Positions 12,088 through 62,459 of a stretch of DNA of 64,000 nt are shown piece after piece (the stretch's first letter is position 1; every line of letters starts with the position of its first letter). The translations under genes were made by a program, and so were the position numbers. The notes beneath the pieces were generated by a model, which had not been told where the DNA came from, searched no databases, and saw only the letters and a program-made list of their open reading frames with translations. The DNA lies in the NCBI GenBank assembly GCA_029263055.1, contig JAJCYG010000036.1, forward strand, positions 6,708 to 70,707, read 5' to 3'. Source of the stretch: Actinomycetes bacterium. GTDB lineage: Bacteria; Auribacterota; JAJCYG01.

Positions 12088-13899
12088 ATGAAAAACCAGT
12101 CAAACACTGTCGACCGTCGTAAGTTTAATCGAACAGAAATAGCTCCTAAAGAGAGTTATTCTTTTCAGGCTTATTCTCTTAAACGAAACATGCCAGAACA
12201 GTTAATGGGTGAATTACTCGATTTTTCTCTTCAAGGTGCTGGCATAAAACTCCTTTCAGTTCAAAACCCTTTAAATAAAGGGGATTTTCTTTATGGAATC
12301 CAATTTGGCCGTCCTGATGGCGAAGAGGTTTCCAAAGCTGTGGGTGTGATTCGCTCAACCGACACTGTACTTGATGACAGTGGCCAACCTTTTTGGAGAG
12401 TTGGCGTCGAGCTTATCAATATCCCTGGCGAGCAAAAGAATGCTGTCTCCAATTCAGAATTTCCAGTTCGTCCTCAACGTTATGAAATTGACGCTGAATG
12501 CGAAGAGCTCACCGAAGTTGCTTTTCAAATAGATAACGAATCTCTTTTCGGAAAACTACACAATGTTTCTAAATTTGGTTTAGCGGTTAAGATTGGCCGA
12601 GAAGCGCCACTAAAATTAAACGTAGGTCGTTATTTAGAGGGTGTTGAAGTTAAAGTTGATGGCGAAATGGTTTTTACAGGGTTTTTAGTGATCCGTAATT
12701 TGCGCCAAACTCAAGACTTTACTCTGATCGGTTGTGAAGTAACAGGAAGTTTAATTGATGTGGATCAAATTTTAGAAAATCAGAAAATAGTTCATTACAA
12801 ATCAAGAGCCAAAGAAAAATGTCTTTCCTTAAGTGAAATCCAACGTATTCCAAATGATTTTAAGGCTCTCGTCGCTGATTTTCGTTATTGCTTAGATAAA
12901 TTTCATAACGAACTAGAGCGTCCCTACGCCAATGATTCTAAAGATAAAGTGGTCCGAGAAGTTTATCCTTTATTTAAATCTCTTGTAGATGAAGTTTATT
13001 CAAAGTTCCGTCGTTGCGTTGAAAATATTTCAGCAGAAGAACATGAATCGTACAAAAACTATTTTCAAAAACAATTGCACCCTCTTTTATTAACCGCCCC
13101 TTTTATTAAACACACCTATCAAAAGCCACTTGGTTATGCGGGTGACTATGACATGGTGCTTAAGGTGTTAGACAAAGAGATCGAAGGGTCGACCTTTCTT
13201 TCAAAACTGCTCAACATGTATTGTTGGAATATGAACGCGGCTGAAGCCCATCGAAATCGAATCACTTATTTAGTTGATTTGCTTCAAGAGGTTGTCAGTA
13301 CTAAAGAACATCGCGAGATCTTAGTGATTGGATCTGGGCCTGCTCGGGAAATTAAACTCTTTTTAAATAAGGCTCCAGCAGATGTTGATTGTACGTTTAC
13401 GCTGCTTGATTTTGATTCAAGAGCGCTCACTCATAGCCAAGAAGAATTGCTTTCTGAGGTGTTGAAAAATCGCTCAAACGTAAAAATCAAATTTATGAAC
13501 AAAAGTGTGCGCCAAATCATTAAGTCCAAGAGCTGTGATACTAATACTGGTAAGTATGATCTGGTTTACTGCGCGGGGCTATTTGATTATCTTTCAGATC
13601 CATTCTGCGTTAAGATGCTGGAAATAATGGGATTACATCTAAAACCTACAGGGCGTATGATTGCCACAAACGTGACAGAGCTCAATTATTACCGATACTT
13701 CATGGAATTCATGGGAGAGTGGTATTTGACACACCGGTCTCTCGATGCTATGTTGAACTTAGCGACTGGTTTACAGAAAAAACATGGGATGTTCGCAGAC
13801 TGTGAAGTGGATGCCACAGGGGTTAATGTATTCTTAAATGTTCAAAAAAGCAAAGAAAACACAGGCACAGCAGACTCCAGCCTTACAAAGTGCTTATAA
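12088..13899 (+). CDS. PilZ-like domain(s) fused to a class I SAM-dependent methyltransferase
   Basis: N-terminal RRKFNRTEI ... LLDFSLQGAGIK (RxxxR plus DxSxxG = PilZ c-di-GMP-binding signature). A second, degenerate copy follows (VRPQRYEI ... LHNVSKFGLAV). The C-terminal half has EILVIGSGPAREI (motif I) and LVYCAGLFDYLSDP, typical of SAM methyltransferases. Confidence 0.55.
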   Translation: MKNQSNTVDRRKFNRTEIAPKESYSFQAYSLKRNMPEQLMGELLDFSLQGAGIKLLSVQNPLNKGDFLYGIQFGRPDGEEVSKAVGVIRSTDTVLDDSGQPFWRVGVELINIPGEQKNAVSNSEFPVRPQRYEIDAECEELTEVAFQIDNESLFGKLHNVSKFGLAVKIGREAPLKLNVGRYLEGVEVKVDGEMVFTGFLVIRNLRQTQDFTLIGCEVTGSLIDVDQILENQKIVHYKSRAKEKCLSLSEIQRIPNDFKALVADFRYCLDKFHNELERPYANDSKDKVVREVYPLFKSLVDEVYSKFRRCVENISAEEHESYKNYFQKQLHPLLLTAPFIKHTYQKPLGYAGDYDMVLKVLDKEIEGSTFLSKLLNMYCWNMNAAEAHRNRITYLVDLLQEVVSTKEHREILVIGSGPAREIKLFLNKAPADVDCTFTLLDFDSRALTHSQEELLSEVLKNRSNVKIKFMNKSVRQIIKSKSCDTNTGKYDLVYCAGLFDYLSDPFCVKMLEIMGLHLKPTGRMIATNVTELNYYRYFMEFMGEWYLTHRSLDAMLNLATGLQKKHGMFADCEVDATGVNVFLNVQKSKENTGTADSSLTKCL

Positions 13900-33264: not shown

Positions 33265-33710
33265 TTCCTGACGCACCCGAACCCAAACTTAGTTCTCTGT
33301 ATCAAGAAGTTATTTTAGAGCACAACCGAAAACCACGTAACTACAAAGAAATCGCTGATGCTAAAAACTACGCACATGGTGTGAATCCGTTATGTGGAGA
33401 TGACTACCATCTCTATTTAGTTTTAGATGATCAAGGTGTGGTACAAGACGTCGGTTTTACAGGAAGTGGTTGTGCGATCTCCAAATCAAGTGCCTCAATC
33501 ATGACCACTATGGTCAAAGGTAAAAAAGTAGAAGAGTGTCAAACCCTTCTAAAATCATTCTTAGAAATGATGACCCAAGACGAAGTTTCTGCAGAGTCTA
33601 AAGAAAACATTGGCCGTCTCTCTATGTTCGGCGGCGTCAAAGAATTCCCCATCCGCGTCAAATGCGCCACCCTTATCTGGCATGCTCTTGCCGATGCTTT
33701 AAAAGGTTAG
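33261..33710 (+). CDS. sufU: SufU/IscU-like zinc-dependent sulfur-transfer protein
   Basis: NPLCGDDYHLYLVLDD...GFTGSGCAISKSSASIMT carries the SufU Cys ligands. 149 aa. Overlaps sufS by 4 nt. Confidence 0.85.
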   Translation: MIPDAPEPKLSSLYQEVILEHNRKPRNYKEIADAKNYAHGVNPLCGDDYHLYLVLDDQGVVQDVGFTGSGCAISKSSASIMTTMVKGKKVEECQTLLKSFLEMMTQDEVSAESKENIGRLSMFGGVKEFPIRVKCATLIWHALADALKG

Positions 33711-33777
33711 ATCCTTTACTTTGTCCTGAATGGCTCGCATTACTTATTTAAAATGGTTCTTGGTGTTTATTTGAGTG

Positions 33778-33806
33778 TTGACAAAAGGCATACATTGTAT
33801 TAATAT
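33778..33806 (+). promoter_or_regulatory. Sigma70-like promoter (-35 TTGACA, 17-nt spacer, -10 TAATAT) ending 6 nt before the brnT ATG, giving a predicted leaderless transcript
   Basis: TTGACA at 33778-33783. TAATAT at 33801-33806. The brnT ATG is at 33813. Confidence 0.4.
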
Positions 33807-33812
33807 GAAGTT

Positions 33813-34109
33813 ATGCTTATCTACTCTTGGAATATTGAAAAGAATAAACAATTAAAGAAAGAGAGAGGTGTTTCTTTCGAAGAGGTGGTTTGCCGTTTAG
33901 AGGAGGGAGATGGGTTGGATGTTGTGACTCATCCGAATCAAACAAAGTATAAAGGGCAAAAAATGTTGATTGTTCGGATAAGTGATTATGTTTATTTGGT
34001 TCCTTTTGTAGAAAATAAGGGAGAACGGTTTTTAAAGACAATTATACCTAGCAGAAAAGCGACAAAGATGTTCATAAAGGACGGTGAAGAAAATGACAAA
34101 GCTAACTAA
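33813..34109 (+). CDS. brnT: BrnT-family type II toxin (DUF497 ribonuclease)
   Basis: MLIYSWNIEKNKQLKKERGVSFEEVV... follows the BrnT consensus (WDxxKxxxNxxKHGVSFEEA). 98 aa. Confidence 0.8.
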   Translation: MLIYSWNIEKNKQLKKERGVSFEEVVCRLEEGDGLDVVTHPNQTKYKGQKMLIVRISDYVYLVPFVENKGERFLKTIIPSRKATKMFIKDGEENDKAN

Positions 34110-34371
34110 AGAAGAAAAAGAATTGTTAGAGTCTTTTGAGAGTGGAGAATGGAAGTCTGTTAAGAATAAAAAAGAGCAGTTGAAAAAATATGCTGAAATT
34201 GCTCGGGCAACACTTCAAAAAGATAAGAGAATTAACATTCGTCTTACCACGAAAGATCTGTCTGATATTAAAGTCAGGGCAATGGAAGAGGGGCTTCCTT
34301 ATCAGACGTTGATTTCTAGTGTGATTCATAAGTATGTGAATGGACGTTTGGTTGATAAAAAAGCCTCTTAG
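34084..34371 (+). CDS. brnA: BrnA antitoxin (ribbon-helix-helix)
   Basis: ...KRINIRLTTKDLSDIKVRAMEEGLPYQTLISSVIHKYVNGRL is the BrnA C-terminal signature. It overlaps brnT. The start is GTG 34084 or ATG 34093. Confidence 0.8.
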   Translation: MKKMTKLTKEEKELLESFESGEWKSVKNKKEQLKKYAEIARATLQKDKRINIRLTTKDLSDIKVRAMEEGLPYQTLISSVIHKYVNGRLVDKKAS

Positions 34372-34376
34372 AAAAA

Positions 34377-35339
34377 TTAGTGTGATTTTTTTCTGAAGGG
34401 GAGAAGGCCGAAAAGAGCTGAGCCTAGAAGGAAAAGTGTGGCTGGTTCTGGGACAGGTTCTGAAGCTTCTCCTAAAAGAGCTAATTGTCCTGGATTTGAT
34501 AATCCTGTTACCACGTTTTCTATGTTTGAGTTTAAGCCGTCAAAATCTGCACGCCTAATACTCTTTGCTGCGCCGTCATCAGTATAATAAATTTTTCCAG
34601 CTGTGATATCTAAGTCAATCCCATAGGGAATGCCTAATCCTGTTGTTATGACACTTTCTATATTTGAATTTAAGCCATTCATATTTGCGCGGCTAATATC
34701 GCCACTTCCTGAATAATAGACCTTTCCAGCATCGACGTCTAATGTCACATCATAAAGGCTAGCTACTCCTGTGACAACGTCTTCTACGTTTGATCCATCT
34801 AAATTTGCACGTTGTACCTTATCTGTAGTAATATCTGCCCAATATATTTTTCCATTGGTTGAGTCTACATCAATTCCATATGCCCCTGATAACCCGCCAA
34901 TGCCTAAATCTTCAACATTCGATCCATCTAAATTTGCTCGTTTGATAAAGTTGTTTCCAAAATCTGTAAAGTACATTTTTCCACCTGCTACATCTAAGTC
35001 TAAGCCCCAGGTGTTGGAGAGTCCTGCTGCTGCGGTTACTAATGTTTCAACATTATTACCATCAAAATCAGCTCGTTGGATTAAATCTGTTCCATAATCA
35101 GCCCAGTAGACTTTTGAGTTGACGGAATCAACTGCTATAGCGAATGGGTTTGATAATCCAGTTACAATGTCAGTGACATTAGATCCATCTTTATCACCAC
35201 TGGTTATTTTGCCTGTGGCCCATTCAGCCCAAAACATTTCAGCAGCTTTTGCTTGATGGGTGAATCCGAATATAAAAAGAAGGATAAGGCAGGAAATTGT
35301 AATAAATGATACATGTCTCAAATGTTTGATTTGTTTCAA
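34377..35339 (-). CDS. Secreted YWTD (LDL-receptor class B)-type beta-propeller repeat protein with a PEP-CTERM sorting signal
   Basis: Signal peptide. Five to six repeats of the form KVYWADYGTDLIQRADFDGNNVE or KIYWADITTDKVQRANLDGSNVE. C-terminus ...VPEPATLFLLGSALFGLLPFRKKSH (PEP motif, TM helix, basic tail). Confidence 0.7.
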   Translation of the reverse strand: MKQIKHLRHVSFITISCLILLFIFGFTHQAKAAEMFWAEWATGKITSGDKDGSNVTDIVTGLSNPFAIAVDSVNSKVYWADYGTDLIQRADFDGNNVETLVTAAAGLSNTWGLDLDVAGGKMYFTDFGNNFIKRANLDGSNVEDLGIGGLSGAYGIDVDSTNGKIYWADITTDKVQRANLDGSNVEDVVTGVASLYDVTLDVDAGKVYYSGSGDISRANMNGLNSNIESVITTGLGIPYGIDLDITAGKIYYTDDGAAKSIRRADFDGLNSNIENVVTGLSNPGQLALLGEASEPVPEPATLFLLGSALFGLLPFRKKSH

Positions 35340-35430
35340 AACATCCTCACTTTGTATAACTTAAATATACCACATTTCTGAGGGTTTATAAAGGGCTTGG
35401 ACCGAACGTTACAGTGAGTCATAAAAGGTG

Positions 35431-37170
35431 TTATTTCAGCTTTTTTCTGAAGGGGAGGAGGCCGAAAAGAGCTGAGCCTAGAAGGAAAAGTGTGGCTGGT
35501 TCTGGGTTGACACCGACTCCAAATGGAGATAAAGAAGCACTGGCAAAGGATGCTGTGAGTGTGTTGCCCACAGTGTCTCGGCTAAGAATCGTTCCTTGTT
35601 CAAGTGTGACCCCACCAATCAAATGGAAAATTTGAAGTTGTTCTTCAGTATAACCAAGTGCGCCGATTTGGGCATCAAAGTCTGCTTGTTCATAACTTAA
35701 GACAAGCGTCATTCCGTTTCCTGCAGTGAATGTGGCTGTGGAAGCAATTTCAAAAATCGATGTGCTGATTAAAGCTCCTACCGCATCATCGCTAAGAAAG
35801 GAATCAATTACACCTTGATCCACAACAAGGGTTTTAGTGGTGTCTCCATTAGCAGTGACAGTGCCAAACTGAACCGTGTCATCTCCAACTAAATCGACTA
35901 AAACATCAGTCCCTATGAGAGTGTTATTAAATGTGAGGAGGCCTGTTTCAGCATAAACATCATTTCCTTTATCAAATGTGTCGACAAAGTTTGTCCAGGT
36001 AATAACCCAGTTGCCTGTATCATTGAGGGCCACTTTAGGACGTGGCAAGTTTTGTGAAAAGTCACTACGCGTATCATGAGTTGTTGTATCAATGGAGAAT
36101 TGTCCTCCGTTGGCTGTTCCGCTAGAATCAAATGAGCGAGCGTAAACCGTGTCTGTTGTGGCCCCGTCATATCGGTTCCAAGTGACGATAAAGTTACCAC
36201 TTGAATCAATAGCAATATCAGGATGTTCATTGTTTGAAAGAGCAAGGTCATTGACTTGGAAGTCTGCTCCTAATGCGTTCCCAGAACTATCGAATCGACG
36301 AGCTTTGATGTTTCCATCTGTTGCTGCCCAAACCGCAATAAAGTTTCCTGCATCATCCATTGCGACTTGTGGATCGCCTGTAGATGAATTTGTTCCTGTT
36401 GAAGAGTTGATTTGAAATTGAGATTTGCCATTAATGATGGTGTTACTTGAGTTATATAAAGAACCAAAGAGTGTGCCGCTAGATGACCAAAGAGCTAACG
36501 CGTTTCCGTTTGCAGCAAGCGTAATATCATTAGAGAAAAAGTTAGCAGATAAATCTGCTCCTGTAGCAGCAGTAATTCTACTCCCAACAGCTGTACCAGA
36601 AGAATTATAGCGTTGAAAATTATGGATCGCACCACTGTGCACCATCCAGCTAACGATTGAGTCACCTGAATCATTAATCGCAACAGAAGGAGCGCTTTGA
36701 GCACCAGCTCCGCCATGGACTGTGACTTCAGTTCCGGGTAGTCCTGTACCAAAAGAGCCTAAATTTCTAAAAAGATCTGTTCCTGAAGCAAAAGGGTTAA
36801 TTGATATTCCAACAATATAATTTCCTGAAGCATTCATGGCTGTGCTAGAGGTTGAATAATTATAGTTTGAAAGATGAGGACCTTTTAAAGAGACTTCTGT
36901 GCCATCGACTGCTGTTGTGTTTGCATTAAAGCGTCGTGAATAAATTTGTGCAGTTGGACTTCCGGTTCCTAGACTGGGTACGTCAAAGTTAGAATCATCA
37001 TTCCACGAAATAAGAAATTGCCCACTCGAATCAATGCCAACTTCAGGACGGTATTGGTTAAAGGCATCAATGGTGTTTACTTTAAATGCTGCTGAAAAGG
37101 ATAGAGAAGGAAAGAGGACTCCTAGAACAAAACTTCCAAAAACCACTGCTGAAAAATTCTTAGATAACAA
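35431..37170 (-). CDS. Large secreted repeat protein (DSSGNF-x-V-x-W-type propeller-like repeats) with a PEP-CTERM sorting signal
   Basis: Signal peptide. Recurrent blocks IDSSGQFLISW, INDSGDSIVSW, MDDAGNFIAVW, IDSSGNFIVTW, LNDTGNWVITW. C-terminus NPEPATLFLLGSALFGLLPFRKKLK. Confidence 0.65.
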   Translation of the reverse strand: MLSKNFSAVVFGSFVLGVLFPSLSFSAAFKVNTIDAFNQYRPEVGIDSSGQFLISWNDDSNFDVPSLGTGSPTAQIYSRRFNANTTAVDGTEVSLKGPHLSNYNYSTSSTAMNASGNYIVGISINPFASGTDLFRNLGSFGTGLPGTEVTVHGGAGAQSAPSVAINDSGDSIVSWMVHSGAIHNFQRYNSSGTAVGSRITAATGADLSANFFSNDITLAANGNALALWSSSGTLFGSLYNSSNTIINGKSQFQINSSTGTNSSTGDPQVAMDDAGNFIAVWAATDGNIKARRFDSSGNALGADFQVNDLALSNNEHPDIAIDSSGNFIVTWNRYDGATTDTVYARSFDSSGTANGGQFSIDTTTHDTRSDFSQNLPRPKVALNDTGNWVITWTNFVDTFDKGNDVYAETGLLTFNNTLIGTDVLVDLVGDDTVQFGTVTANGDTTKTLVVDQGVIDSFLSDDAVGALISTSIFEIASTATFTAGNGMTLVLSYEQADFDAQIGALGYTEEQLQIFHLIGGVTLEQGTILSRDTVGNTLTASFASASLSPFGVGVNPEPATLFLLGSALFGLLPFRKKLK

Positions 37171-37203
37171 TATGATTTACAACTCCTTCTTATATAAATA
37201 AAT

Positions 37204-37223
37204 ATACATTAATATTAATGTAT
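37204..37223. promoter_or_regulatory. Perfect 20-bp palindrome ATACATTAATATTAATGTAT in a divergent promoter region; candidate transcription-factor operator
   Basis: Exact reverse-complement symmetry. It lies 34 nt upstream of the PEP-CTERM gene start and 91 nt upstream of the citrate synthase ATG. Confidence 0.4.
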
Positions 37224-37314
37224 TGTCAATTTGGTTTATAGGCCTGATGCTTAGAGGTTGCCAAGCTGAGGGGTTTGTGGCACAATTTTGGGCTCTAGAT
37301 GAGGGAATATAGGT

Positions 37315-38622
37315 ATGTTGGAGGAATTGGTGGGCGAGTCGACAAGTGTGAATCTAAATGGGAAAGTAGTTGAGCTACCTGTAGTTACAGGAAGCGAAGG
37401 AGAGAAAGGGCTTGATGTTTCTCAACTTCGTAAAGAGAGCGGCTATATTACCCTAGACCCTGCCTATGGGAATACAGGGGCCTGCGAAAGTTCGATCTGC
37501 TTTATTGATGGGGAAAAGGGAATCTTGCGTTACTGGGGAATCCCAATTGAGCAGCTCGCAGAAAAATCTAGTTTTATTGAAACAACTTATCTTTTACTTT
37601 ATGGCAAATTACCTAGCCAACAAGAACTGACTCAACTGAGTCAACGAATTTCAAAGAATTTAACCATTCCTGATTTAGTTAAAAAACTTTATTCAAATTT
37701 TTCAGATGAAACTCATCCTATGGCTTTGCTTTCTGCGGTTGTTAGTGCGTTGTCAGGCTATGATAAAAAACAATCTTCATTAGAACAATCAGAAGTAGAT
37801 ATTGATGAAACGTCCATTCGATTGATTGGTCAGTTTCCTGCGATTGCTGCTGCGATCTATCGTAAAAAAATTGGCAAAGAATTTATTGAGCCAGATCCCA
37901 AAGCAACCTATACAGAAAATTTAGTTCGCATGATGTTTGGTGAAACTGATTTAGAAAAACAAATCACACCTGAAGCGATTGAAGCTTTAGATATGTTGTT
38001 GATTCTCCACGCTGATCACGAACAAAACTGCTCTACTTCAGCGGTACAATTGGTTGGAAGCAGCCGCACGAATTTGTATGCTTCGATTGCTGCTGGCATT
38101 GCGGCGTTGTGGGGGCCTTGGCACGGTGGAGCTAATCAAGATGTAATGGTAATGCTGCAAAAGATTAAAGATTCAGGTGGCGATGTTCAAAAATATGTTG
38201 AGATTGCTAAAGACAAAAATTCTAAGGTTCGTCTTTCTGGTTTTGGCCACCGTGTGTACAAAACATTTGATCCACGTGCTAAAGTGATTAAATCAGTCTG
38301 TGACAAAGTGCTTGAAAAGATGGGGGTCAATAATCCTTTACTTGAGATTGCTAAAGAATTAGAACAAACCGCACTTCAAGATGAATACTTTATTCAGCGT
38401 AAGCTCTACCCTAATGTTGATTTTTACAGTGGGATTATTTATAAAGCGATTGGCATTCCGACAGATATGTTTACTGTGATGTTTGCTATGGGACGCTTGC
38501 CGGGTTGGATTGCGCATTGGAAAGAAATGCTCACCAGCAAGCCATCTCGTATTGGTCGCCCACGTCAAATTTATGTGGGACCAACTAAAACAGATTACAC
38601 GCCTGTAGACCAAAGAAGTTAG
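37315..38622 (+). CDS. gltA: Citrate synthase
   Basis: GFGHRVYKTFDPRA (catalytic His region), LHADHEQNCSTS, and the N-terminal ...LDPAYGNTGACESSICFIDGEKGILRYWGIPIEQLAE. Confidence 0.9.
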   Translation: MLEELVGESTSVNLNGKVVELPVVTGSEGEKGLDVSQLRKESGYITLDPAYGNTGACESSICFIDGEKGILRYWGIPIEQLAEKSSFIETTYLLLYGKLPSQQELTQLSQRISKNLTIPDLVKKLYSNFSDETHPMALLSAVVSALSGYDKKQSSLEQSEVDIDETSIRLIGQFPAIAAAIYRKKIGKEFIEPDPKATYTENLVRMMFGETDLEKQITPEAIEALDMLLILHADHEQNCSTSAVQLVGSSRTNLYASIAAGIAALWGPWHGGANQDVMVMLQKIKDSGGDVQKYVEIAKDKNSKVRLSGFGHRVYKTFDPRAKVIKSVCDKVLEKMGVNNPLLEIAKELEQTALQDEYFIQRKLYPNVDFYSGIIYKAIGIPTDMFTVMFAMGRLPGWIAHWKEMLTSKPSRIGRPRQIYVGPTKTDYTPVDQRS

Positions 38623-38638
38623 TTGTTGAGATGTTGTT

Positions 38639-39121
38639 ATGAAAAATTTATTTTTATTTTTGTTTGTTCTTTCCTTTTTGTCTTCGGCGGCTTCTTTAGC
38701 CTATTCTCAAGACCAAGTTTCTAGTGAAGATGCTAAAACCCTTGAGAAAATGGAGTGGATCATTGAGACTCCTGAAGAAGTTGTGAATTTGTGCAATCGT
38801 TTTATGGACGCGATCTACTTAGGGGAAGTGAATGAAGCGTTTGAACTTTTAGAGCCTTACTTCCCTAATTCCGAAGAGAGTTTTCCCGTTCTTAAGGAAA
38901 AAACATGGAAGAAACTCCGTTATGTTGATTTAAAGATCGGTCGGATGCTCGGCTATGATCTAGTTCGTCAAGATGTGCATGGAGGCCGTATTGGCCGGTT
39001 TGTTTATGTGACCCGTTATGATGACTATATGTTTCAGTGGACTTTTATCATGATGAAACCTGATAAGACCTGGAAAGTGAAATCTGTTTCTTGGGATGAA
39101 AAAATTAAAGAGATTTTCTAG
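38639..39121 (+). CDS. Secreted protein of unknown function (160 aa)
   Basis: Signal peptide MKNLFLFLFVLSFLSSAASLAYS. No known motif. Confidence 0.5.
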   Translation: MKNLFLFLFVLSFLSSAASLAYSQDQVSSEDAKTLEKMEWIIETPEEVVNLCNRFMDAIYLGEVNEAFELLEPYFPNSEESFPVLKEKTWKKLRYVDLKIGRMLGYDLVRQDVHGGRIGRFVYVTRYDDYMFQWTFIMMKPDKTWKVKSVSWDEKIKEIF

Positions 39122-39755
39122 TCTATTTTTTCTTCTTTCAAGTCTGGCTTGGGGTGAAAATCAAATGACCATTGTTGCCTTAGGTGATTCCATTACAGCA
39201 GGGACCCCTGCTTTTTTATCTCCCGTAGAATCTCCCCCTAATGGTTTTGGTAATGAGAAAAGCCAATATGGTTATTGGGTTATGCAGCAGCACCCGCAAT
39301 GGACCCTCTTAAATCGAGGTGTGGGTGGAGAGCGTTCAGATGAAATATTAAAGCGCTTTGATCGAGATGTGTTGCAAGTTAAACCCAAAGTCGTGATTGT
39401 TTTAGCCGGAGTGAATGATCTTTATCAAGGTTATGAGCCTGAGTGGGTGATCAAAAACTTAGAGAAAATCTACGCTAAAGCTGAAGCAGAGCAGATAAAA
39501 GTTTTAGCCTGCACCATTCTTCCTTATAATGGTTCGAGTCTTGAAGTACAAGAAGGAATGAACCAGATCAACCAGTGGATTCAATCTTATGCAGAAGAAA
39601 CAGGATTTGGTTTCTGCGACACGCACACATTGATGGCCCATCCTAATAATCCAAATGATTTGGTTAGTGAAGTCGATGGCATTCACCCTGATGTAGAGGG
39701 ACACAAACGATTAGGTTTGGGTATTGCTCAAGCATTAGAGAAACTGATTCAGTAA
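39096..39755 (+). CDS. SGNH/GDSL-family hydrolase (arylesterase / lysophospholipase-like), secreted
   Basis: IVALGDSITAG (GDS(I/L) block I with the catalytic Ser), GVNDL (block III), and the C-terminal DGIHP (Asp-His). Signal peptide. Confidence 0.7.
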   Translation: MKKLKRFSSLFFLLSSLAWGENQMTIVALGDSITAGTPAFLSPVESPPNGFGNEKSQYGYWVMQQHPQWTLLNRGVGGERSDEILKRFDRDVLQVKPKVVIVLAGVNDLYQGYEPEWVIKNLEKIYAKAEAEQIKVLACTILPYNGSSLEVQEGMNQINQWIQSYAEETGFGFCDTHTLMAHPNNPNDLVSEVDGIHPDVEGHKRLGLGIAQALEKLIQ

Positions 39756-40489
39756 TGGATATTCAACTTAAGCGACTCTCTTTTCAATATCATCCTAAAG
39801 GAGCTCATATTCTCAAAGATGTGAGTCTCAAAATAAAGTTTGGTGAATCCTTAGCCATTATTGGGCCGAGCGGAACCGGCAAAAGCACGCTTCTTAAAAT
39901 GATCAATGGTTTACTCCTTCCTCAAAAGGGGAGTGTTCTCTTAAACAAAGAACCTTTGCATCTGTCTCAAATCCATGCACTGCGACGAAGATTTGGTTAT
40001 GTGATGCAAGAGGCAGGACTCTTTCCTTTTTTAACGGTAGAAGAAAATATTACGTTTATGGCTCGCTTGGATGGGTGGGACCGCGAAGAGATAAAGAAGC
40101 GGCTTAATGAAGTGTTGGATTTGGTTGATCTTGCCGGGCGACCTCTTAGAAAAAGAATGCCTGATCAATTAAGTGGGGGGCAGCGCCAAAGAGTTTCAAT
40201 GGCGCGCGCGCTTTTTTATGATCCCCCTGTTCTTTTATTAGATGAGCCCTTTACCTATTTAGATTCTTTGGTGAGCGAAGAGCTGCTTCGTGAGTTTTTA
40301 AAAGTTAAAGAGCAATTGAACAAAACAATTATTTTAGTGACGCATGATTTAAGGCGAGCTTGCCGCTTGGCTGATCGTATTTGCCTGCTTTCAAATGGTG
40401 TGATTGAGCAAGACACTTCAGTGCAAAAATTTTTAACTTCACCTAAGTCACATCTAGCGAAGCTATTTGTGCAGACATTGGAAAAATGA
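39755..40489 (+). CDS. ABC transporter ATP-binding protein (osmoprotectant/choline-type, no CBS domains)
   Basis: Walker A GPSGTGKST. Signature LSGGQRQRVSMARAL. Walker B LLLDEPF. Confidence 0.8.
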   Translation: MDIQLKRLSFQYHPKGAHILKDVSLKIKFGESLAIIGPSGTGKSTLLKMINGLLLPQKGSVLLNKEPLHLSQIHALRRRFGYVMQEAGLFPFLTVEENITFMARLDGWDREEIKKRLNEVLDLVDLAGRPLRKRMPDQLSGGQRQRVSMARALFYDPPVLLLDEPFTYLDSLVSEELLREFLKVKEQLNKTIILVTHDLRRACRLADRICLLSNGVIEQDTSVQKFLTSPKSHLAKLFVQTLEK

Positions 40490-42021
40490 AAAGACTTTTA
40501 ATTTTTATTTTATTCTCTTTTGTTTTTCTTCTTCCAAATGCATGGGCTAAGGAGCCTATTCGTATAGGAAGCAAGCATTTTACAGAGAATTATCTTTTAG
40601 CTGAAATGATGTCACAGCTTTTAGAAGCACGAGGCTATTCTGTTGAAAGAGTGCAAGGATTGGGTGGCACCATGGTCTGTTTTGAAGCACTTCGTAATGG
40701 AGAGTTAGATGTTTATCCAGAATATACAGGAACTCTTTTAAAACAGATCCTTAAAATTAAGAATGAAAATAAGATGAGCTCTGTTTTAAAGGAGCGATAT
40801 GATTTAGAAATTCTCCCTGCTTTTGGATTTAATAATTCTTATGCGATTGCTTTAAACGAAGACTTGGCTGAAGAAAAGGGTTTAAAGAAAATCTCTGATT
40901 TGAAATATCAGTATAAGTTAAAAGGAGGGCTTTCATATGAGTTTCTCCGACGAGAAGATGGTTGGGAAGACTTGGCTGCAGCCTACAGGTTGAGTAACCG
41001 TGTTATGGGGATGGAACATGGTTTAGCTTATGAGGCGCTAAGACATGACCAAACCAACTTTACAGATGCTTACACCACTGATGCTAAAATTGAGCGATAT
41101 AATTTAAGGCTCTTAGAAGATGATCTGAACTTTTTCCCTATCTATAAAGCCGTTCCTTTTGTTCAATCAAACCTTCCTGAAAAAGTAAAATCGATCTTAT
41201 CTCTTTTTGAGAATCAAATCGATGAAGCCACTATGACTCGATTGAATGCTCAGGTAGAGATTAATAAATTTTCGTTTGCAGAAGTGGCGCGTACCTTTTT
41301 AAAAGAAAAGGGTTGGATTAAAAAGAAACTGATTCCAGTGAAACTAAGTGCTCAAAGTCCGATTGTTGTCGCGCCACAAGCAGAAAAAAAGAATAAGGCA
41401 AATGTTTCGCTTCTTAAAGAGTTGTCACAAAATTGTTTTGAACATCTTTTTATGGTTTTGGTGGCACTTTCTTTGGGAGTCGTGGTTGCCATTCCAATTG
41501 GAGTGCTTGCTTACCGAAATGAACAATGGGCTCACTTTATTCTTCCTTTAACAGGATTGCTGCAAACCATTCCTAGTATTGCTTTGTTGGCTTTAATGAT
41601 TCCACTCTTTGGTATTGGAATGTTACCTGCGATTGTGGCGCTCTTTCTTTATAGCTTGCTCCCGATTGTTCGCAATACCTATGTGGGGTTGAATGGAATT
41701 GAAGCGGTCTATAGAGATACAGCCCGTGCGTTAGGAATGACGCCTAAACAACGGTTATGGGAAGTGGAGCTGCGTTTAGCTTATCCTACTTTGCTAGCAG
41801 GAATCAAAACAGCCGCAATCATCAATATAGGCACAGCTACCTTAGCAGCATTTATTGGAGCAGGGGGCTTGGGTGAACCGATTGTGACGGGATTGGCATT
41901 AAACAATCACCAGCTTATCTTACAAGGCGCCATTCCAGCAGCAGTGCTTGCTATTGGAGTGGAGTTGCTTTTTCGATTATTTGATCCAAAAAAACAACTT
42001 AGTCTTGAACAGTCACTTTAA
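40486..42021 (+). CDS. Fused substrate-binding (N-terminal) and permease (C-terminal) subunit of a glycine-betaine/choline-type ABC transporter
   Basis: Signal peptide plus an OpuAC/OpuBC-like binding domain (residues about 25-290). This is followed by 5-6 TM helices with the ABC permease EAA-like loop ...ARALGMTPKQRLWEVELRLA. Confidence 0.75.
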   Translation: MKRLLIFILFSFVFLLPNAWAKEPIRIGSKHFTENYLLAEMMSQLLEARGYSVERVQGLGGTMVCFEALRNGELDVYPEYTGTLLKQILKIKNENKMSSVLKERYDLEILPAFGFNNSYAIALNEDLAEEKGLKKISDLKYQYKLKGGLSYEFLRREDGWEDLAAAYRLSNRVMGMEHGLAYEALRHDQTNFTDAYTTDAKIERYNLRLLEDDLNFFPIYKAVPFVQSNLPEKVKSILSLFENQIDEATMTRLNAQVEINKFSFAEVARTFLKEKGWIKKKLIPVKLSAQSPIVVAPQAEKKNKANVSLLKELSQNCFEHLFMVLVALSLGVVVAIPIGVLAYRNEQWAHFILPLTGLLQTIPSIALLALMIPLFGIGMLPAIVALFLYSLLPIVRNTYVGLNGIEAVYRDTARALGMTPKQRLWEVELRLAYPTLLAGIKTAAIINIGTATLAAFIGAGGLGEPIVTGLALNNHQLILQGAIPAAVLAIGVELLFRLFDPKKQLSLEQSL

Positions 42022-44689: not shown

Positions 44690-45034
44690 TTATACTGTGA
44701 CTGATTCTGTTGGCGGAAACGTAGTTGTTTCTAATTCTGATTTGTATGGGAATTGGTTTGGGGAAGAAGTTTGGTAGGCATTGAGTTCAATGTCTTCCGC
44801 AGGGCCTTCTTTTAAAAATTTGTGAACAATGTAGACAAACATTGCTTTTTTCAACACATCGATTTCTTCTAAATCCCATTGTCCGATCAAGGTGTCTGAA
44901 ATACGGATGTTGTAATCAATCTCTTCAGAGGTTTCTTGGTTTTTAAATTTGTAAGTAAAGCGTTCAAAACCTGGTTTGTAAGGATGTTGAATTAGTTCTA
45001 AATAGTTAAATTGGGCACTCATGTTTGTCTCCAT
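44690..45034 (-). CDS. Hypothetical acidic 114-aa protein
   Basis: ORF only. Convergent with the rhodanese gene. Confidence 0.4.
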   Translation of the reverse strand: METNMSAQFNYLELIQHPYKPGFERFTYKFKNQETSEEIDYNIRISDTLIGQWDLEEIDVLKKAMFVYIVHKFLKEGPAEDIELNAYQTSSPNQFPYKSELETTTFPPTESVTV

Positions 45035-45093
45035 CTAAATCAAAAGTAATAGTTTAAGATCAGTATCTTACCATACTTATTCATAGAAGAAAA

Positions 45094-46374
45094 ATGCTTA
45101 AACTCAGGTCAAGATTTGTGTATCATAGCCAAATGACTAAAGGGATTCTCTCTTATCAGGATGTGCGCCAGCAAACAGTGGCACTCTGTGCTTCGCTTAA
45201 AACAGAAGATTTTTGTGCTCAAAGTATGCCTGATGTCAGTCCCACTAAATGGCATTTAGCCCACACCACTTGGTTTTTTGAAACCTTTATTTTATCTAAA
45301 GCAATGGCACGTTACCGCTCTTACAATGACTGCTTTAAATATCTTTTTAATTCTTATTATAATGGAATTGGAGAGCAGTTTCCTCGTGAAAGCCGCGGTC
45401 TTTTGTCGCGTCCAACCGTTGAAGAGGTGCTTGATTATCGTAAAAAGATTGATCAGCAAATGGTTGCACTTCTACGTAATAAGAAACAGAAAGAGAAGTG
45501 GAATTATTTTGTGCAATTAGGATTGCATCATGAGCAGCAGCATCAAGAATTAATCATAACGGATATTAAGCATGTTTTTTCTTTAAATCCACTCCAACCT
45601 GTTTACAAAAAGAAGGCCCCAAAAAGAAATGTTTCTGTAGGAAAAATGAACTGGGTTCGTTTTAATGAAGAAGAAACATTATTGGGGCATGAGGGTGTGG
45701 GGTTTCATTTTGATAATGAAGGGCCTTTGCATCGTGCGACGTTAATCCCTTTTCAGATTGCGAATCGCTTGGTTACTAATGGAGAATACCTTAAGTTTAT
45801 CGAGGCAGGTGGTTACAAAAAGTCTCAGTATTGGCTTTCTAAAGGTTGGGAAGTGGTGCAAAGAGAAAAGTGGAATGCTCCTCTTTATTGGAAAAAAGAG
45901 GGGAAAGAGTGGTTTGTGATGACGCTGACAGGCATTAAAAAAGTAAATACAAGTGAGCCAGTCTGCCATGTCAGTTATTATGAAGCCGATGCGTTTGCCA
46001 GTTGGATGAATGCGCGATTGCCTTCTGAAGCAGAGTGGGAGCGTGCTTCGCAAGAGGTTTCGCTAAAAGGAAATTTTGTGCAGAAAAAAAGTTTTCATCC
46101 TCAACCCGTTGAAAAAAAGAATCAACAGGTTTTGGATCAACTTTTTGGAGATGTGTGGGAGTGGACACGTTCGCCTTATGTTCCTTATCCTGGTTATGTG
46201 GCTTCTAAAACAGCTGTTGGAGAATACAATGGCAAGTTTATGTGTAACCAAATGGTGTTGCGCGGTGGATCGTGTGCAACCTCTCAAGATCACATCCGTT
46301 CAACATACCGAAACTTTTTTTATCCAGAAGATCGCTGGCAGTTTAGCGGGATTCGATTGGCAAAGGACTTATGA
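45094..46374 (+). CDS. egtB: Ergothioneine biosynthesis sulfoxide synthase EgtB (DinB_2 plus FGE-sulfatase domains)
   Basis: The N-terminal WHLAHTTWFFETF has DinB/EgtB iron-ligand His residues. The C-terminal GDVWEWTRSPY...LRGGSCATSQDHIRSTYRNFFYPEDRWQFSGIRLAKD is an FGE-sulfatase fold. 426 aa. Confidence 0.8.
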   Translation: MLKLRSRFVYHSQMTKGILSYQDVRQQTVALCASLKTEDFCAQSMPDVSPTKWHLAHTTWFFETFILSKAMARYRSYNDCFKYLFNSYYNGIGEQFPRESRGLLSRPTVEEVLDYRKKIDQQMVALLRNKKQKEKWNYFVQLGLHHEQQHQELIITDIKHVFSLNPLQPVYKKKAPKRNVSVGKMNWVRFNEEETLLGHEGVGFHFDNEGPLHRATLIPFQIANRLVTNGEYLKFIEAGGYKKSQYWLSKGWEVVQREKWNAPLYWKKEGKEWFVMTLTGIKKVNTSEPVCHVSYYEADAFASWMNARLPSEAEWERASQEVSLKGNFVQKKSFHPQPVEKKNQQVLDQLFGDVWEWTRSPYVPYPGYVASKTAVGEYNGKFMCNQMVLRGGSCATSQDHIRSTYRNFFYPEDRWQFSGIRLAKDL

Positions 46375-47291
46375 GTTTTAAAGAAGATGTGGTTACAGGA
46401 TTAGAAAAAGAGCGAAAAGAATTATCGCCCAAATATTTCTATGATCAAAAAGGGTCGCAGCTGTTTGACCAGATTTGCGATTTAGAAGAGTATTATGTCA
46501 CTCGAACTGAATTGGAGATTATGGAGCAGAGTCTTCCTGAGATTGTTGATTTTTTAGGGGAAGAGAGCTTGTTGATTGAGTATGGTAGCGGAAGTAGTGT
46601 AAAAACACGGATGCTGCTCGATGAACTGAAAAAACCTGCTGCTTATATCCCGGTTGATATTTCTCATAAACATTTACAGCAGACAGCTGAAACATTGTCT
46701 CAGAGCTATCCTGATTTAGAGGTGAACCCGGTTGCAGCTGATTTTACCAAGCCATTTTCATTGCCTGAATGTTCTCAAGCCCACGCCAAAAAAGTGATCT
46801 ACTTTCCTGGGTCAACGATAGGCAATTTTAGCCCGACTCAAGCAGAAACAATTCTAAAAGAGATGGCTCATTTGTGTGAGCCTGAAGGAGATCTTTTGAT
46901 CGGCGTTGACTTAAAAAAAGACCGGTCTATTTTAGAATCTGCCTACAATGATTCAAAAGGGGTGACTGAAGCATTTAATCTAAATCTTTTAGAGCGGATC
47001 AATAATGAATTAGGGGCTAACTTTCAATTAGATCAATTTCAGCATCAAGCCATTTATAATGAAAAACAGTGCCGCATTGAAATGCACTTAGTGAGCCAAA
47101 AAGAGCAGGAAGTCTTGATTGAAGAGACACTGATTCGATTTGAACAAAATGAAACTATTTGTACGGAGCATTCATACAAATACTCCATTGAAGAGTTTGA
47201 GCAACTAGCGCAAAAAGCATCCTTTCAATTAAAGAAAGTCTGGACCGATGCCAACCAGCTTTTTAGCCTCCAATATTTGAGCCTAACATGA
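46371..47291 (+). CDS. egtD: L-histidine N-alpha-methyltransferase EgtD
   Basis: KYFYDQKGSQLFDQICDLEEYYVTRTELEIM...LIEYGSGSSVKTRMLLDEL...YIPVDIS is the EgtD signature. The ATG overlaps the egtB stop (ATGA). Confidence 0.85.
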   Translation: MSFKEDVVTGLEKERKELSPKYFYDQKGSQLFDQICDLEEYYVTRTELEIMEQSLPEIVDFLGEESLLIEYGSGSSVKTRMLLDELKKPAAYIPVDISHKHLQQTAETLSQSYPDLEVNPVAADFTKPFSLPECSQAHAKKVIYFPGSTIGNFSPTQAETILKEMAHLCEPEGDLLIGVDLKKDRSILESAYNDSKGVTEAFNLNLLERINNELGANFQLDQFQHQAIYNEKQCRIEMHLVSQKEQEVLIEETLIRFEQNETICTEHSYKYSIEEFEQLAQKASFQLKKVWTDANQLFSLQYLSLT

Positions 47292-47410
47292 AAAAAGCCC
47301 TCCTCCTTTTAGCGCTGCTTTTTTTAACGGGCTGCGCTTCTAGTTTAACCAATCAAGATGACAATTTTGAGGTCCGTGAAGAGGGCGCCGGGTTCTTTTT
47401 TGGCTTCTAG
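47288..47410 (+). CDS. Putative 40-aa lipoprotein, translationally coupled to egtD (below the ORF-track size cutoff)
   Basis: ATGAAAAAAGCC... encodes MKKALLLLALLFLTGCASSLTNQDDNFEVREEGAGFFFGF. It has the lipobox LTGC. The ATG overlaps the egtD stop (ATGA). Confidence 0.35.
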   Translation: MKKALLLLALLFLTGCASSLTNQDDNFEVREEGAGFFFGF

Positions 47411-47581
47411 TCTGACAAATTTGTACATCCTCTTGCAGAAATGTTCCTAACCTAAAATTCCAACATAGATTGTAAGTCACTCAATATAAGCTAATTATAA
47501 CCTTATCTATTTAAACTCTTTTCCTCTCAAATGGCTCTTTTTGCGGTATGGAAGTTGCATATTAATGGGGTAGGGGGAAAT

Positions 47582-52682: not shown

Positions 52683-54497
52683 TTGGGCAAAGAAATGCAC
52701 GTCAAGGCGATTCCTCCTGAGTTTGATTTGATTAAGCAGGAGAACAAAACATTTATCTTAAGAAAAGACCTCGCAGCCCAGCTGCTTGATTTAGATGTGG
52801 GGAATCTTTGGGATTGGACAAACGATCCTGAAAAAGAGGTTCAGTACTATAAGGGGCGGATTCCGGCAGCCGCTGTGACGCTTCCTATTGAGGGTGGATT
52901 GCGTGTGGTTTTGCGCCGTTATCATCATGGTGGGGTTTTGGGGCATTTCCAAAAAGATCGTTATCTTTTTTCGTTCCCTCCTTTAAAAGAAATTGCAGCT
53001 TGTGCGTTTGCTCATGATCAAGGTGTGCCTGCGGTTGAAATTTTAGGTGCTGTTCAAGAAAGAGTGGGGCTGTTTAATCGAATCTACTTGATTACGAAGC
53101 ACCTCCCTGAAGGCTCTGATCTAGGCGAGTTTTTTCGTAAACAATATGAACGGGTTAATTGGCGAGAAAAACATCAAATTATTGAAGAGACAGGTAAGCT
53201 GATTCGTAAGATGCACAATGAAGGGCTTTTTCATTCTGATTTGCACTTAAAAAATATTTATATGTCTCAACAGAACGGGACTAAACAGTTTTATTTACTC
53301 GATTTTGACAAAGCACATGTGGTGCCAAACCTTTCTAAAGAGATGCGTTTAAAAAATCTATTGAGACTAGAACGCTACCTGGCTAAATACTTTTCTGAAA
53401 CCTCTATTTTTACTGCTTCTGATCGCATTCGGTTTTTACGTGCTTACTTTGGTTCAAATCAAGAAGCGCGTGAGTTTGTTGAGCGACATATAAAACAGTT
53501 TCAACGTCATGTTAAAACCCATCAACTTTTGTGGTGGAAAAAAGTAGGCGACCCCCATTGGTGGAGCTATATTTGTATAAGAGGGATGGTTGCTGTTTTA
53601 AACTTAGTTCCTGAACAGTTTTCGTACTCATGCTTTGTGCTTATCTCTAAGATAGCTTACCGAATAGTGCCTAAATTACGTCGACGGATTATGAATAATC
53701 TTAATCTTGTTTATAAAGAAACAATGTCACCCGAAGATAAAGAGCGTTTAGCAAAAAATATAGCAAAGCATCTTGCGTTCTCTTTTGCTGAGTTTACCCG
53801 TTCTTTTTCAATGTCGCGAAAAGATCTGCTTAAGGCTCGAGAAAAGTATGAATTTATTGGCAAAGAAAATGTAGAAGAAGGGCTTAGAAGAGGTAAAGGG
53901 ATTTTGTTTTTGGTTTCGCATCTGGGAAACTGGGAACGGCTTAATTTAGTGGAGTCGTGGTTTGATTTTAAATCTTATGCCTTGGCAAAGCAGATAAAAA
54001 ATAAGTGGTTTGATCAATGGGTGCTTGATATCCGTTCGCGGCTTGGGATTAATGTTTTAAAAGCAAATCGAATGAATCGTGAGATTTTACGCGTCTTAAA
54101 AGAAAATAATACCGTAGCTGTGCTGATTGATCAAAACCCTGGAGCGGGTCGGGGTGAAATGATTCCCTTTATGGGAGTTCCGGCACCGACTAACACCGCT
54201 CCTGCCTTTTTTGCGTTAAAATCAGGAGCAACGGTTTTGCCTGCTTTTTGTTTGCGTAAGAGCCCAGGAGTATTTAAGTTTATTATTGATCCTCCTGTTG
54301 AGTTGATCCAAAAAGAGACTTTTCGAGAATCTTTAACAGCGAATACGGAGCTCTTTGCCAAAAACTTAGAAGAGTATGTGCGTAAAGACCCCGAGCAATG
54401 GTTTTGGGTGCACAACCGTTGGAAAGTGAAAACCAAAAAAGTTAAGAATGACTCCAAAGAGACGCGTCATCCTGAGCGTAGCGAAGGATCTAGTTAA
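52683..54497 (+). CDS. Fusion of a Kdo/WaaP-family LPS kinase domain (N-terminal) and an LpxL/HtrB-family lipid A late acyltransferase domain (C-terminal)
   Basis: Residues about 1-270 have LFHSDLHLKNIYM...YLLDFDKAH (kinase catalytic and metal-binding loops). Residues about 300-590 have FLVSHLGNWER and the C-terminal DPEQWFWVHNRWK, as in lipid A lauroyl/myristoyl acyltransferases. The last 9 codons (TRHPERSEGSS) are encoded by a copy of the dispersed palindromic repeat. Confidence 0.7.
   Translation: MGKEMHVKAIPPEFDLIKQENKTFILRKDLAAQLLDLDVGNLWDWTNDPEKEVQYYKGRIPAAAVTLPIEGGLRVVLRRYHHGGVLGHFQKDRYLFSFPPLKEIAACAFAHDQGVPAVEILGAVQERVGLFNRIYLITKHLPEGSDLGEFFRKQYERVNWREKHQIIEETGKLIRKMHNEGLFHSDLHLKNIYMSQQNGTKQFYLLDFDKAHVVPNLSKEMRLKNLLRLERYLAKYFSETSIFTASDRIRFLRAYFGSNQEAREFVERHIKQFQRHVKTHQLLWWKKVGDPHWWSYICIRGMVAVLNLVPEQFSYSCFVLISKIAYRIVPKLRRRIMNNLNLVYKETMSPEDKERLAKNIAKHLAFSFAEFTRSFSMSRKDLLKAREKYEFIGKENVEEGLRRGKGILFLVSHLGNWERLNLVESWFDFKSYALAKQIKNKWFDQWVLDIRSRLGINVLKANRMNREILRVLKENNTVAVLIDQNPGAGRGEMIPFMGVPAPTNTAPAFFALKSGATVLPAFCLRKSPGVFKFIIDPPVELIQKETFRESLTANTELFAKNLEEYVRKDPEQWFWVHNRWKVKTKKVKNDSKETRHPERSEGSS
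54463..54492 (+). repeat. Third arm of the dispersed palindromic repeat (CGCGTCATCCTGAGCGTAGCGAAGGATCTA), inside the 3' end of the kinase-acyltransferase CDS
   Basis: 28 of 30 nt are identical to arm 1 at 42627. It supplies the stop-proximal codons of one gene and the SD region of the next. Confidence 0.5.
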
Positions 54498-61539: not shown

Positions 61540-62459
61540 TTAACTGGAACACCGTTCAGTTGCTGCAGAAATCTCTTCAATCGATAGAGGGTTTGAAGAG
61601 CTCTCTATCGATTGAAACGATTGTGGTTGATAATGGTTCTTCTGATGAAAGTGTGGCTTTGGTTAAAGAAAAGTTTCCAAAAGTTCTCCTTATAGCCAAT
61701 TCAAAAAATGAGGGATTTGCTACAGCCGTTAATCAAGGACTTCAGAAAAGCCAAGGGCAATCCATTTTATTGCTTAATAGTGATGCGCAATTAGTTGAAG
61801 GAACCTTGGAAAAATTAAAGAAAGTTTTAGATTCAGAGCCTAAAATAGGGATGGTTGGAGCTGATTTAGTTTATGAAGATGGCCGTCATCAAAATTCAAT
61901 CGATCATTTTCCCAACTTGGCAACAGAGCTCTTTAATAAAAGTGTGCTGAAACTCTTTTTTTCTAAGTGGTATCCTGGCAAACGTTCAGGTTTTGATCAG
62001 CCGATTAAAGTCCCTTCGTTGATAGGGGCAGGTCTCTTTCTTAAAAGAAAAATGGTTGAAGAGATAGGTCTCTTGGATGAAGGTTATTTTTTCTTTTTAG
62101 AAGAGACAGACTGGTGTTATCGAATGAGACAGCAGGGATGGACGTCATTCTTTGTTCCTGAAGCTAAAATTATTCATCTTCAAGGGCAAAGTGCTAAAAA
62201 GCATCCGTGGCGTTCACGTGTTGAATTTTATCGTTCACGTTATCGTTTCTTTAGAAAGAACTATGGTTTCTTTTCATATTTGATTTTGCTTGTTGGATTG
62301 AATATTCGTATTTTGTTGGAGCTTCTATTTACAGGATTAGTTGTGTTACTTTCATTAGGGTTTTGGCGTGATGGTCGAAAACGATTTTCACGTTATGCTG
62401 CTTTATTGGGTTGGCATCTTATGGGGTGCCCAAAAAAGATGGGGCTTTCGGTTTTGTGA
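61515..62459 (+). CDS. GT2-family glycosyltransferase (paralog of 59312..60292)
   Basis: ISIIIVNWNTVQLL...VVDNGSSDES...NEGFATAVNQGL...LLLNSDAQL. Confidence 0.75.
   Translation: MAEISIIIVNWNTVQLLQKSLQSIEGLKSSLSIETIVVDNGSSDESVALVKEKFPKVLLIANSKNEGFATAVNQGLQKSQGQSILLLNSDAQLVEGTLEKLKKVLDSEPKIGMVGADLVYEDGRHQNSIDHFPNLATELFNKSVLKLFFSKWYPGKRSGFDQPIKVPSLIGAGLFLKRKMVEEIGLLDEGYFFFLEETDWCYRMRQQGWTSFFVPEAKIIHLQGQSAKKHPWRSRVEFYRSRYRFFRKNYGFFSYLILLVGLNIRILLELLFTGLVVLLSLGFWRDGRKRFSRYAALLGWHLMGCPKKMGLSVL

Follow-up and report, generated by a model that had tools for sequence, protein, structure and literature searches.

What are two neighbouring proteins with exosortase sorting signals doing in a stretch of bacterial DNA where no exosortase is seen? 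The question is raised by a 64,000-nt stretch of an assembly deposited as Actinomycetes bacterium (GTDB Auribacterota, JAJCYG01; GCA_029263055.1, contig JAJCYG010000036.1, positions 6,708 to 70,707 of the forward strand), which was analysed over its whole length and is called the window here. Two adjacent genes in it encode proteins, referred to as P1 and P2, that both end in a PEP-CTERM tail. We consider it likely that P1 and P2 are Sec-exported surface or matrix proteins of a Gram-negative host, acted on by an exosortase whose gene lies elsewhere in the genome. In this scheme, which is the usual route for this tag class, the signal peptide would carry each protein across the inner membrane, the PEP-CTERM helix with its RKK stop-transfer signal would hold it there, and the exosortase would recognise (V/N)PEP, cut off the tail and send the protein outward, to be attached or released. 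The passengers would be non-catalytic beta-propellers, with ligand binding as their most likely function.

Two tagged beta-propeller proteins

The open reading frame (ORF) listing, profile hidden Markov models (HMMs) and AlphaFold2 (AF2) models gave a consistent domain architecture for both proteins. P1 (34377..35339, minus strand, 320 aa) consists of a signal peptide, a YWTD six-bladed beta-propeller and a PEP-CTERM tail, and P2 (35431..37170, minus strand, 579 aa) of a signal peptide, a propeller of seven blades and a pre-tail domain, again followed by a PEP-CTERM tail. Both genes have a TTG start codon with a Shine-Dalgarno-like sequence upstream (GAGGA for P1, AAGGAG for P2), and the exact P2 protein is on record as P0129. 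A first-pass annotation made from the DNA alone had described two adjacent minus-strand PEP-CTERM repeat proteins here, and the ORFs at these coordinates agree with it.

The two tails have the same anatomy: VPEP in P1 (...EPVPEPATLFLLGSALFGLLPFRKKSH) or NPEP in P2 (...GVNPEPATLFLLGSALFGLLPFRKKLK) is followed at the extreme C-terminus by ATLFLLGSALFGLLPF, RKK, two further residues and the stop codon. The hydrophobic helix is 16 residues long, the AF2 model of P1 is helical at residues 299-310, and from PEP through RKK the same 22 residues are found in both proteins. P1 passes TIGR02595 (19.8 bits vs a cut-off of 16) and PF07589 (23.3 vs 20.7). The first-pass description of both tails as textbook PEP-CTERM signals thus holds for the PEP motif, helix and RKK of both proteins and for the HMM scores of P1; P2 alone remains below the two cut-offs. 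VPDSG-CTERM was tried as an alternative tag class and rejected, with a score of 13 vs a cut-off of 25. At the other end, inspection of both N-termini revealed an n-region that is basic or polar, an h-region of 15 residues (hydropathy 2.3-2.8) and, for cleavage, a small-x-small site. In P1 the signal peptide spans aa 1-32 (35244..35339, minus strand), with a basic n-region, the h-region VSFITISCLILLFIF and a cleavage site at AKA/A; residues 10-24 have a hydropathy of 2.81, and AF2 predicts a helix at residues 4-25. In P2 it spans aa 1 to ~28 (37087..37170, minus strand), with the h-region FSAVVFGSFVLGVLF (hydropathy 2.33) and a site at SFS/A or SAA/F, and since it lacks a cysteine P2 is not a lipoprotein.

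On these sequence features we assign both P1 and P2 as predicted PEP-CTERM proteins. The only ortholog of P2, P0133, is 55% identical to it and is encoded on the Logan contig L084; its tail (NPEPATLLLLGSALMGLFRFRKKLF) passes TIGR02595 at 18.7. Between P2 and P0133, 20 of the 25 tail residues are identical, compared with 55% overall, and a tail that is better conserved than the body would fit recognition by a conserved enzyme. The PEP motif, helix, basic cluster, signal peptide and Gram-negative host are features that P1 and P2 have in common with the PEP-CTERM/exosortase system (TIGR02595, PF07589; PMC1569441), as are passenger domains that are poorly annotated; the two tails visible here would also fit the greater likeness of tails within one genome that is known from the system. 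They depart from it in that here two substrates are visible in 64 kb without an exosortase in the window, and in that P2 has an NPEP variant scoring under the cut-offs.

The passenger of P1 is a YWTD propeller of six blades (aa 34-288; 34476..35240, minus strand), with the blade motifs FWAE, YWAD, YFTD, YWAD, YYSG and YYTD. PF00058 scored 80.9 bits vs a threshold of 21, with four stretches passing individually. A search of Protein Data Bank (PDB) sequences with P1 recovered the propellers of LRP4, LRP6 and LDLR at E ~1e-41 to 1e-13, the LRP6 and LRP4 chains matching at E 1e-41 to 1e-35. The AF2 model, which has 24 strands and a predicted local distance difference test score (pLDDT) of 88.9, superposes on LRP4 and LRP6 with a root-mean-square deviation (RMSD) of 1.5-1.9 Å over ~262 columns. 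These results uphold the first-pass reading of P1 as a protein built of YWTD repeats. P1 has the motif, the six blades and the fold in common with the YWTD/LDL-receptor class B propellers of LRP4, LRP6, LDLR and nidogen, at an identity of 25-30%. However, those animal proteins have flanking EGF modules, whereas P1 is a single bacterial propeller that runs straight into a sorting tag: the Pfam scan found no EGF module in P1, and the tail begins 7 residues after residue 288, the end of the propeller. P1 thus belongs to the YWTD propellers without being a receptor of the LDLR family.

Propellers of this type had been taken to be uncommon in bacteria, which is contradicted by at least 2,603 bacterial YWTD relatives of P1 at E <= 1e-3. 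Among the matches listed, their C-termini mostly carry T9SS (type IX secretion system), dockerin or other sorting and anchoring modules; PEP-CTERM-like tails occur in 4 of the 120 best matches, one of which, P0050, has a propeller followed by VPEP in the same layout as P1. The nearest homologs among the matches listed are at most 51% identical to P1 and mostly carry other tags. A propeller or repeat passenger with a PEP-CTERM tag is also found in ScyF (NF035926; an NHL-repeat protein of the scytonemin locus) and PepA (NF033554; flocculation), which have been experimentally tied to exosortase-dependent matrix functions (PMC12188702, PMC9850573). P1 is an ortholog of neither, its matches being weak and partial (25.7 bits vs a cut-off of 350 for ScyF, and 30.6 vs 80 for PepA).

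The P2 propeller (aa ~28-412; 35935..37089, minus strand) was delimited by repeat positions, AF2 and Foldseek, and consists of seven blades of ~50 aa with the core motif P-x-[VI]-A-x-D-x-x-G-N-F-[IV]-[IV]-x-W. The first-pass annotation had noted a DSSGNF-x-V-x-W repeat, different from that of P1, and this was recovered in seven copies (six by regular expression and one degenerate) at residues 47, 113, 166, ~218, 272, 322 and 383; AF2 models residues ~28-412 with confidence as an all-beta domain, mostly at pLDDT 80-97. The Pfam scan gave no match in P2 except the tag. The top solved structures found by Foldseek are the seven-bladed lectins PHL and PLL of Photorhabdus and CV39L of Chromobacterium (E 1e-11 to 1e-9; template modelling (TM) score 0.67-0.70 normalised to the target; identity 11-15%). 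These lectins have the nearest solved folds to the P2 propeller, but the likeness is at the level of the fold alone, without sequence-level homology. The profile of the P2 family (A3) had no match at E <= 0.01 among PDB sequences.

The sole curated model that touches the P2 repeat is NF053835 (PDIAV motif-containing lipoprotein; E 3.5e-8, 33.2 bits vs a cut-off of 90). The two have the blade motif P-D-I-A-[VI]-D-x-x-G in common, whereas P2 is below the cut-off, lacks the lipobox cysteine and has a PEP-CTERM tail instead. Using phmmer against 1.84 billion cluster representatives, we found 24,019 proteins with this repeat at E<=1e-3 and 13,553 at E<=1e-10, including giant proteins that reach 7,923 aa and have 41 matched stretches. 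There was no credible Pfam match on the repeat in P2, P0148, P0134 or P0326, and no solved structure by sequence. The ~50-aa blade repeat of P2 thus represents a very large family without a Pfam model or a solved structure, a side result that may be of use in itself.

Between propeller and tail, P2 has a pre-tail domain of ~140 aa (aa ~413-553; 35512..35934, minus strand) that ends in SPFGVGVN and was delimited by alignment A4; AF2 has low confidence over residues 413-555. In the same alignment the domain is common to P2 and two PEP-CTERM proteins of a related organism, P0133 and a second one on L084, at 42% and 29% identity, and the junction F-G-V-x-V-N-PEP is kept across all three (F-G-V-G-V-N-PEP in P2). 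The second PEP-CTERM protein on L084 (10773-12506, 577 aa) has a different propeller repeat, DSSGN-x-x-ISYYD, together with the pre-tail domain and junction of P2. The occurrence of the same domain and junction behind a differing propeller suggests that the pre-tail domain and the tag may form a lineage-specific module.

A sorting tag copied between neighbouring genes

The similarity of the two tails extends to their DNA. A repeat search (family D3), together with the HMMs, delimited a PEP-CTERM cassette of 66 nt in P1 (PEPATLFLLGSALFGLLPFRKK; 34387..34452, minus strand), and the repeat search found its second copy in P2 (35441..35506, minus strand), the two forming a direct repeat. They are identical at 65 of 66 nt and their flanks are unrelated. 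Twenty of the 22 codons are the same, for which the chance probability is ~4e-8 by window codon usage. The codons are moreover atypical: TTC is used in 3 of 3 cases where the genome uses TTT at 86%, neither TTA nor TTG is present, and the codons TTC, CTT/CTC/CTA, GGC and CCC of the cassette are seldom used in this genome. The tail of P2 matches that of its ortholog at 42 of 66 nt. Greater tail similarity within a species is an established property of the system (PMC1569441). Given the near-identity of the cassettes, their unrelated flanks, the atypical codons and the lower similarity to the ortholog, the tag common to P1 and P2 is best explained as a recent DNA copy, which would have arisen by gene conversion or cassette duplication.

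Copying likely went from P2 to P1, because the ortholog of P2 keeps the junction and tail and the nearest homologs of P1 mostly carry other tags. The 66-nt repeats bracket exactly the P2 stop codon, the 91-bp spacer and the body of P1. One could imagine that the cassette is a portable recombination site and that the tail-to-tail segment recombined into the P2 tail; we regard this idea as doubtful. If true, it would mean that the homology between sorting signals lets exosortase substrates be exchanged, or receive new tags, in cassette form. The 35-nt DNA core of the tail had 0 matches in genome and metagenome contig collections, and a protein search with the two-tail alignment returned no matches and was uninformative, as it did not recover P0129 itself. 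The 13 metagenome loci obtained in a tail-alignment scan were discarded as context, all belonging to unrelated organisms of high GC (50-64%) whose PEP-CTERM tails are of a generic type. The P1/P2 pair may serve as a clear case in which the DNA of a sorting tag was copied from one gene to an unrelated neighbour within a small accessory island.

Exosortase, host envelope and alternative explanations

An exosortase (EpsH/Xrt) has at least eight transmembrane segments. No exosortase was found in the 64-kb window by an NCBIfam scan of 10 ORFs that included every ORF with at least seven predicted transmembrane segments; these match ArnT-like, amino-acid permease, HAE3/RND, MFS, flippase-like, Wzy_C ligase and ABC permease families, and the remaining three ORFs, with 3-6 predicted transmembrane segments, encode a K+ channel and two histidine kinases, as judged from the Pfam assignments of their orthologues in a syntenic relative or from a scan of the ORFs themselves. 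P1 and P2 are the only PEP-CTERM ORFs in the 64 kb. Because one or two exosortases serve many dispersed substrates, and because 64 kb covers little of a bacterial genome, the absence of the enzyme from this stretch is the expected state. PEP-CTERM substrates number more than 10 per genome on average, with EpsH usually located in an exopolysaccharide (EPS) locus (Haft 2006, PMC1569441), and in Nostoc punctiforme a single CrtB serves 35 PEP-CTERM proteins (PMC12188702). The first-pass statement that the window encodes no exosortase was thus correct, but with an enzyme present once or twice per genome it does not point to an anomaly (PMC1569441, PMC12188702).

The same annotation had remarked on the richness of the region in glycosyltransferases in connection with EPS loci. 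The stretch at ~48.8-64 kb is indeed rich in them, but it comprises lipopolysaccharide (LPS) core and lipid A biosynthesis and modification genes, and is not EPS-linked. It holds heptosyltransferase II (234 vs 134.6), a heptosyltransferase I-like protein below the cut-off, two Kdo-kinase proteins, a lipid A acyltransferase, a Wzy_C (O-antigen) ligase and a weaker ArnC-like match; a weak ArnT-like match lies away from it, at ~8.1-9.6 kb. The stretch was accordingly rejected as an EPS/exosortase locus, and no PEP-CTERM/XrtA-system family reached its cut-off, the XrtA-system models scoring far below (TIGR03088 83.8 vs 409, TIGR04063 51.7 vs 442, TIGR03097 56.3 vs 188). The reading of any histidine kinase of the window as PrsK was likewise rejected: three kinases were scanned, and PrsK did not appear in the 25 top families listed for any of them. 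The LPS core and lipid A genes show that the host has an outer membrane.

Several points weigh against the view that P1 and P2 are exosortase substrates at the cell surface. No exosortase has been seen, with 64 kb of the genome searched. The tail of P2 is under both TIGR02595 (14.4 vs 16, -1.6 bits) and PF07589 (18.4 vs 20.7, -2.3 bits); it misses the cut-offs because P2 has NPEP where P1 has VPEP. The resemblance of P2 to lectins lies in the modelled fold alone, and a binding function is a guess. Finally, P1 is absent from a collection of 15 billion proteins under three possible starts, with no near-identical protein among the matches listed, while P2, the toxin and antitoxin, citrate synthase and other neighbours on the same 166,911-bp NCBI contig are all present in it. 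Since the neighbours are there and P1 is missing, P1 may have gone uncalled in the source annotation or been classed there as a pseudogene.

These points may be accommodated in other ways. The genome could be devoid of an exosortase altogether, in which case the tails would only anchor the proteins in the inner membrane, exposing the propellers to the periplasm, or would be left over from a lost system. The lack of an exosortase within 64 kb would agree with this, as would the location of the pair on a recently acquired island that is lacking in two relatives. However, the tail is canonical and has diverged less than the rest of the protein between P2 and its ortholog (55% identity); the related organism carries at least two such tails (L084), and the window is only a small part of the genome, all of which makes orphan tags quite improbable. 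The absence of P1 from the protein collection, together with a weak promoter match near it (9/12) and a closest homolog, among the matches listed, of only 50% identity, might instead indicate that P1 is a non-functional by-product, a propeller fragment joined by recombination to a copy of the P2 tail and left unexpressed. We consider this highly improbable, as the ORF is intact and has a complete signal peptide, six blades, a pLDDT of 88.9 and a Shine-Dalgarno sequence, and as the architecture of a propeller followed by VPEP recurs in P0050.

It is also conceivable that the passengers are enzymes, P1 an SGL- or lactonase-type hydrolase and P2 a sialidase-like glycosidase that would act on matrix polysaccharide. 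P1 does weakly match SGL (22.7 bits), Vgb_lyase and arylesterase, but all of its enzyme-family scores are below cut-off, in contrast to the 80.9 bits for YWTD and the LRP4/LRP6 fold at 1.5-1.9 Å. Similarly, sialidases are listed by Foldseek for P2 at E ~1e-9 to 1e-10, but with TM scores of 0.32-0.55 and RMSD values of 8-18 Å they fit more poorly than the lectins; furthermore, members of the P2 family typically form long arrays (up to 41 repeat matches) in giant proteins, as is typical of adhesin-like proteins. Catalytic passengers thus seem unlikely, and we favour binding propellers exported for processing by a distant exosortase. With P1 and P2, the already very long list of predicted exosortase substrates would gain two passengers that are uncharacterised, an addition that carries little weight by itself.

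The accessory island and its surroundings

P1 and P2 lie on a 3.5-kb island (33705..37251, delimited by blastn and synteny) that consists of a toxin-antitoxin pair and the two PEP-CTERM genes and is located between iscU/sufU of the suf operon and citrate synthase. Among the matches listed for this citrate synthase in a scan of genome contigs, the best is 58% identical and belongs to a metagenome-assembled genome of Bdellovibrionota. We compared it with two relatives, L082, a 292-kb Logan contig (DRR538836_1864) with 70-83% nucleotide identity to the window, and L098, with 66-72%. In both, NifU_N is followed directly by citrate synthase, without the island; the blastn homology with L082 ends at 33704 and restarts at 37252, and L082 has a 119-bp spacer at this place. 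The ortholog of P2 is located in a different neighbourhood on L084, a contig from the same sample as L098. The GC content of the island is 0.39 vs 0.38 for the window, and no integrase or flanking repeat was seen at the island.

The toxin gene (33813..34109, plus strand, 98 aa) is BrnT-like, with PF04365 BrnT_toxin at 26.1 bits, below the cut-off of 34.5, and its exact protein is on record. The CopG/BrnA-like antitoxin gene (34084..34371, plus strand) matches PF12441 CopG_antitoxin at 30.3 vs 28, and the version on record has 92 aa and starts at 34093. The antitoxin gene is convergent with P1, their stop codons being 5 bp apart. Upstream of P2 there is a sigma-70-like promoter match, TTGACA-17-TATATT (37201..37229, minus strand; 11/12 consensus positions), and the sole promoter match near P1 is the weak one mentioned above. 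No terminator-like site was found in the 91-bp spacer between P2 and P1. Given the promoter match upstream of P2 and the lack of such a site in the spacer, P2 and P1 are probably co-transcribed as one unit. The Rfam scan of the window found no RNA family.

Two further segments of the window are also absent from L082. They are 38597-42012, with a secreted protein of 160 aa, a GDSL lipase and a glycine-betaine-type ABC transporter, and 45010-47545, with the ergothioneine genes EgtB (576 vs 360) and EgtD (417 vs 291). Within the LPS stretch, a single 604-aa ORF at 52683-54497 has a Kdo/WaaP-family LPS kinase domain (residues 74-255) and, fused to it, an acyltransferase domain of lipid A biosynthesis (residues 294-581), and the ORF at 62411-64000, which runs off the end of the window, has a Kdo/WaaP-family kinase domain and a second protein-kinase-like match. 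A 603-aa protein encoded at 12088-13899 has a PilZ domain at its N-terminus and a class I methyltransferase domain at its C-terminus.

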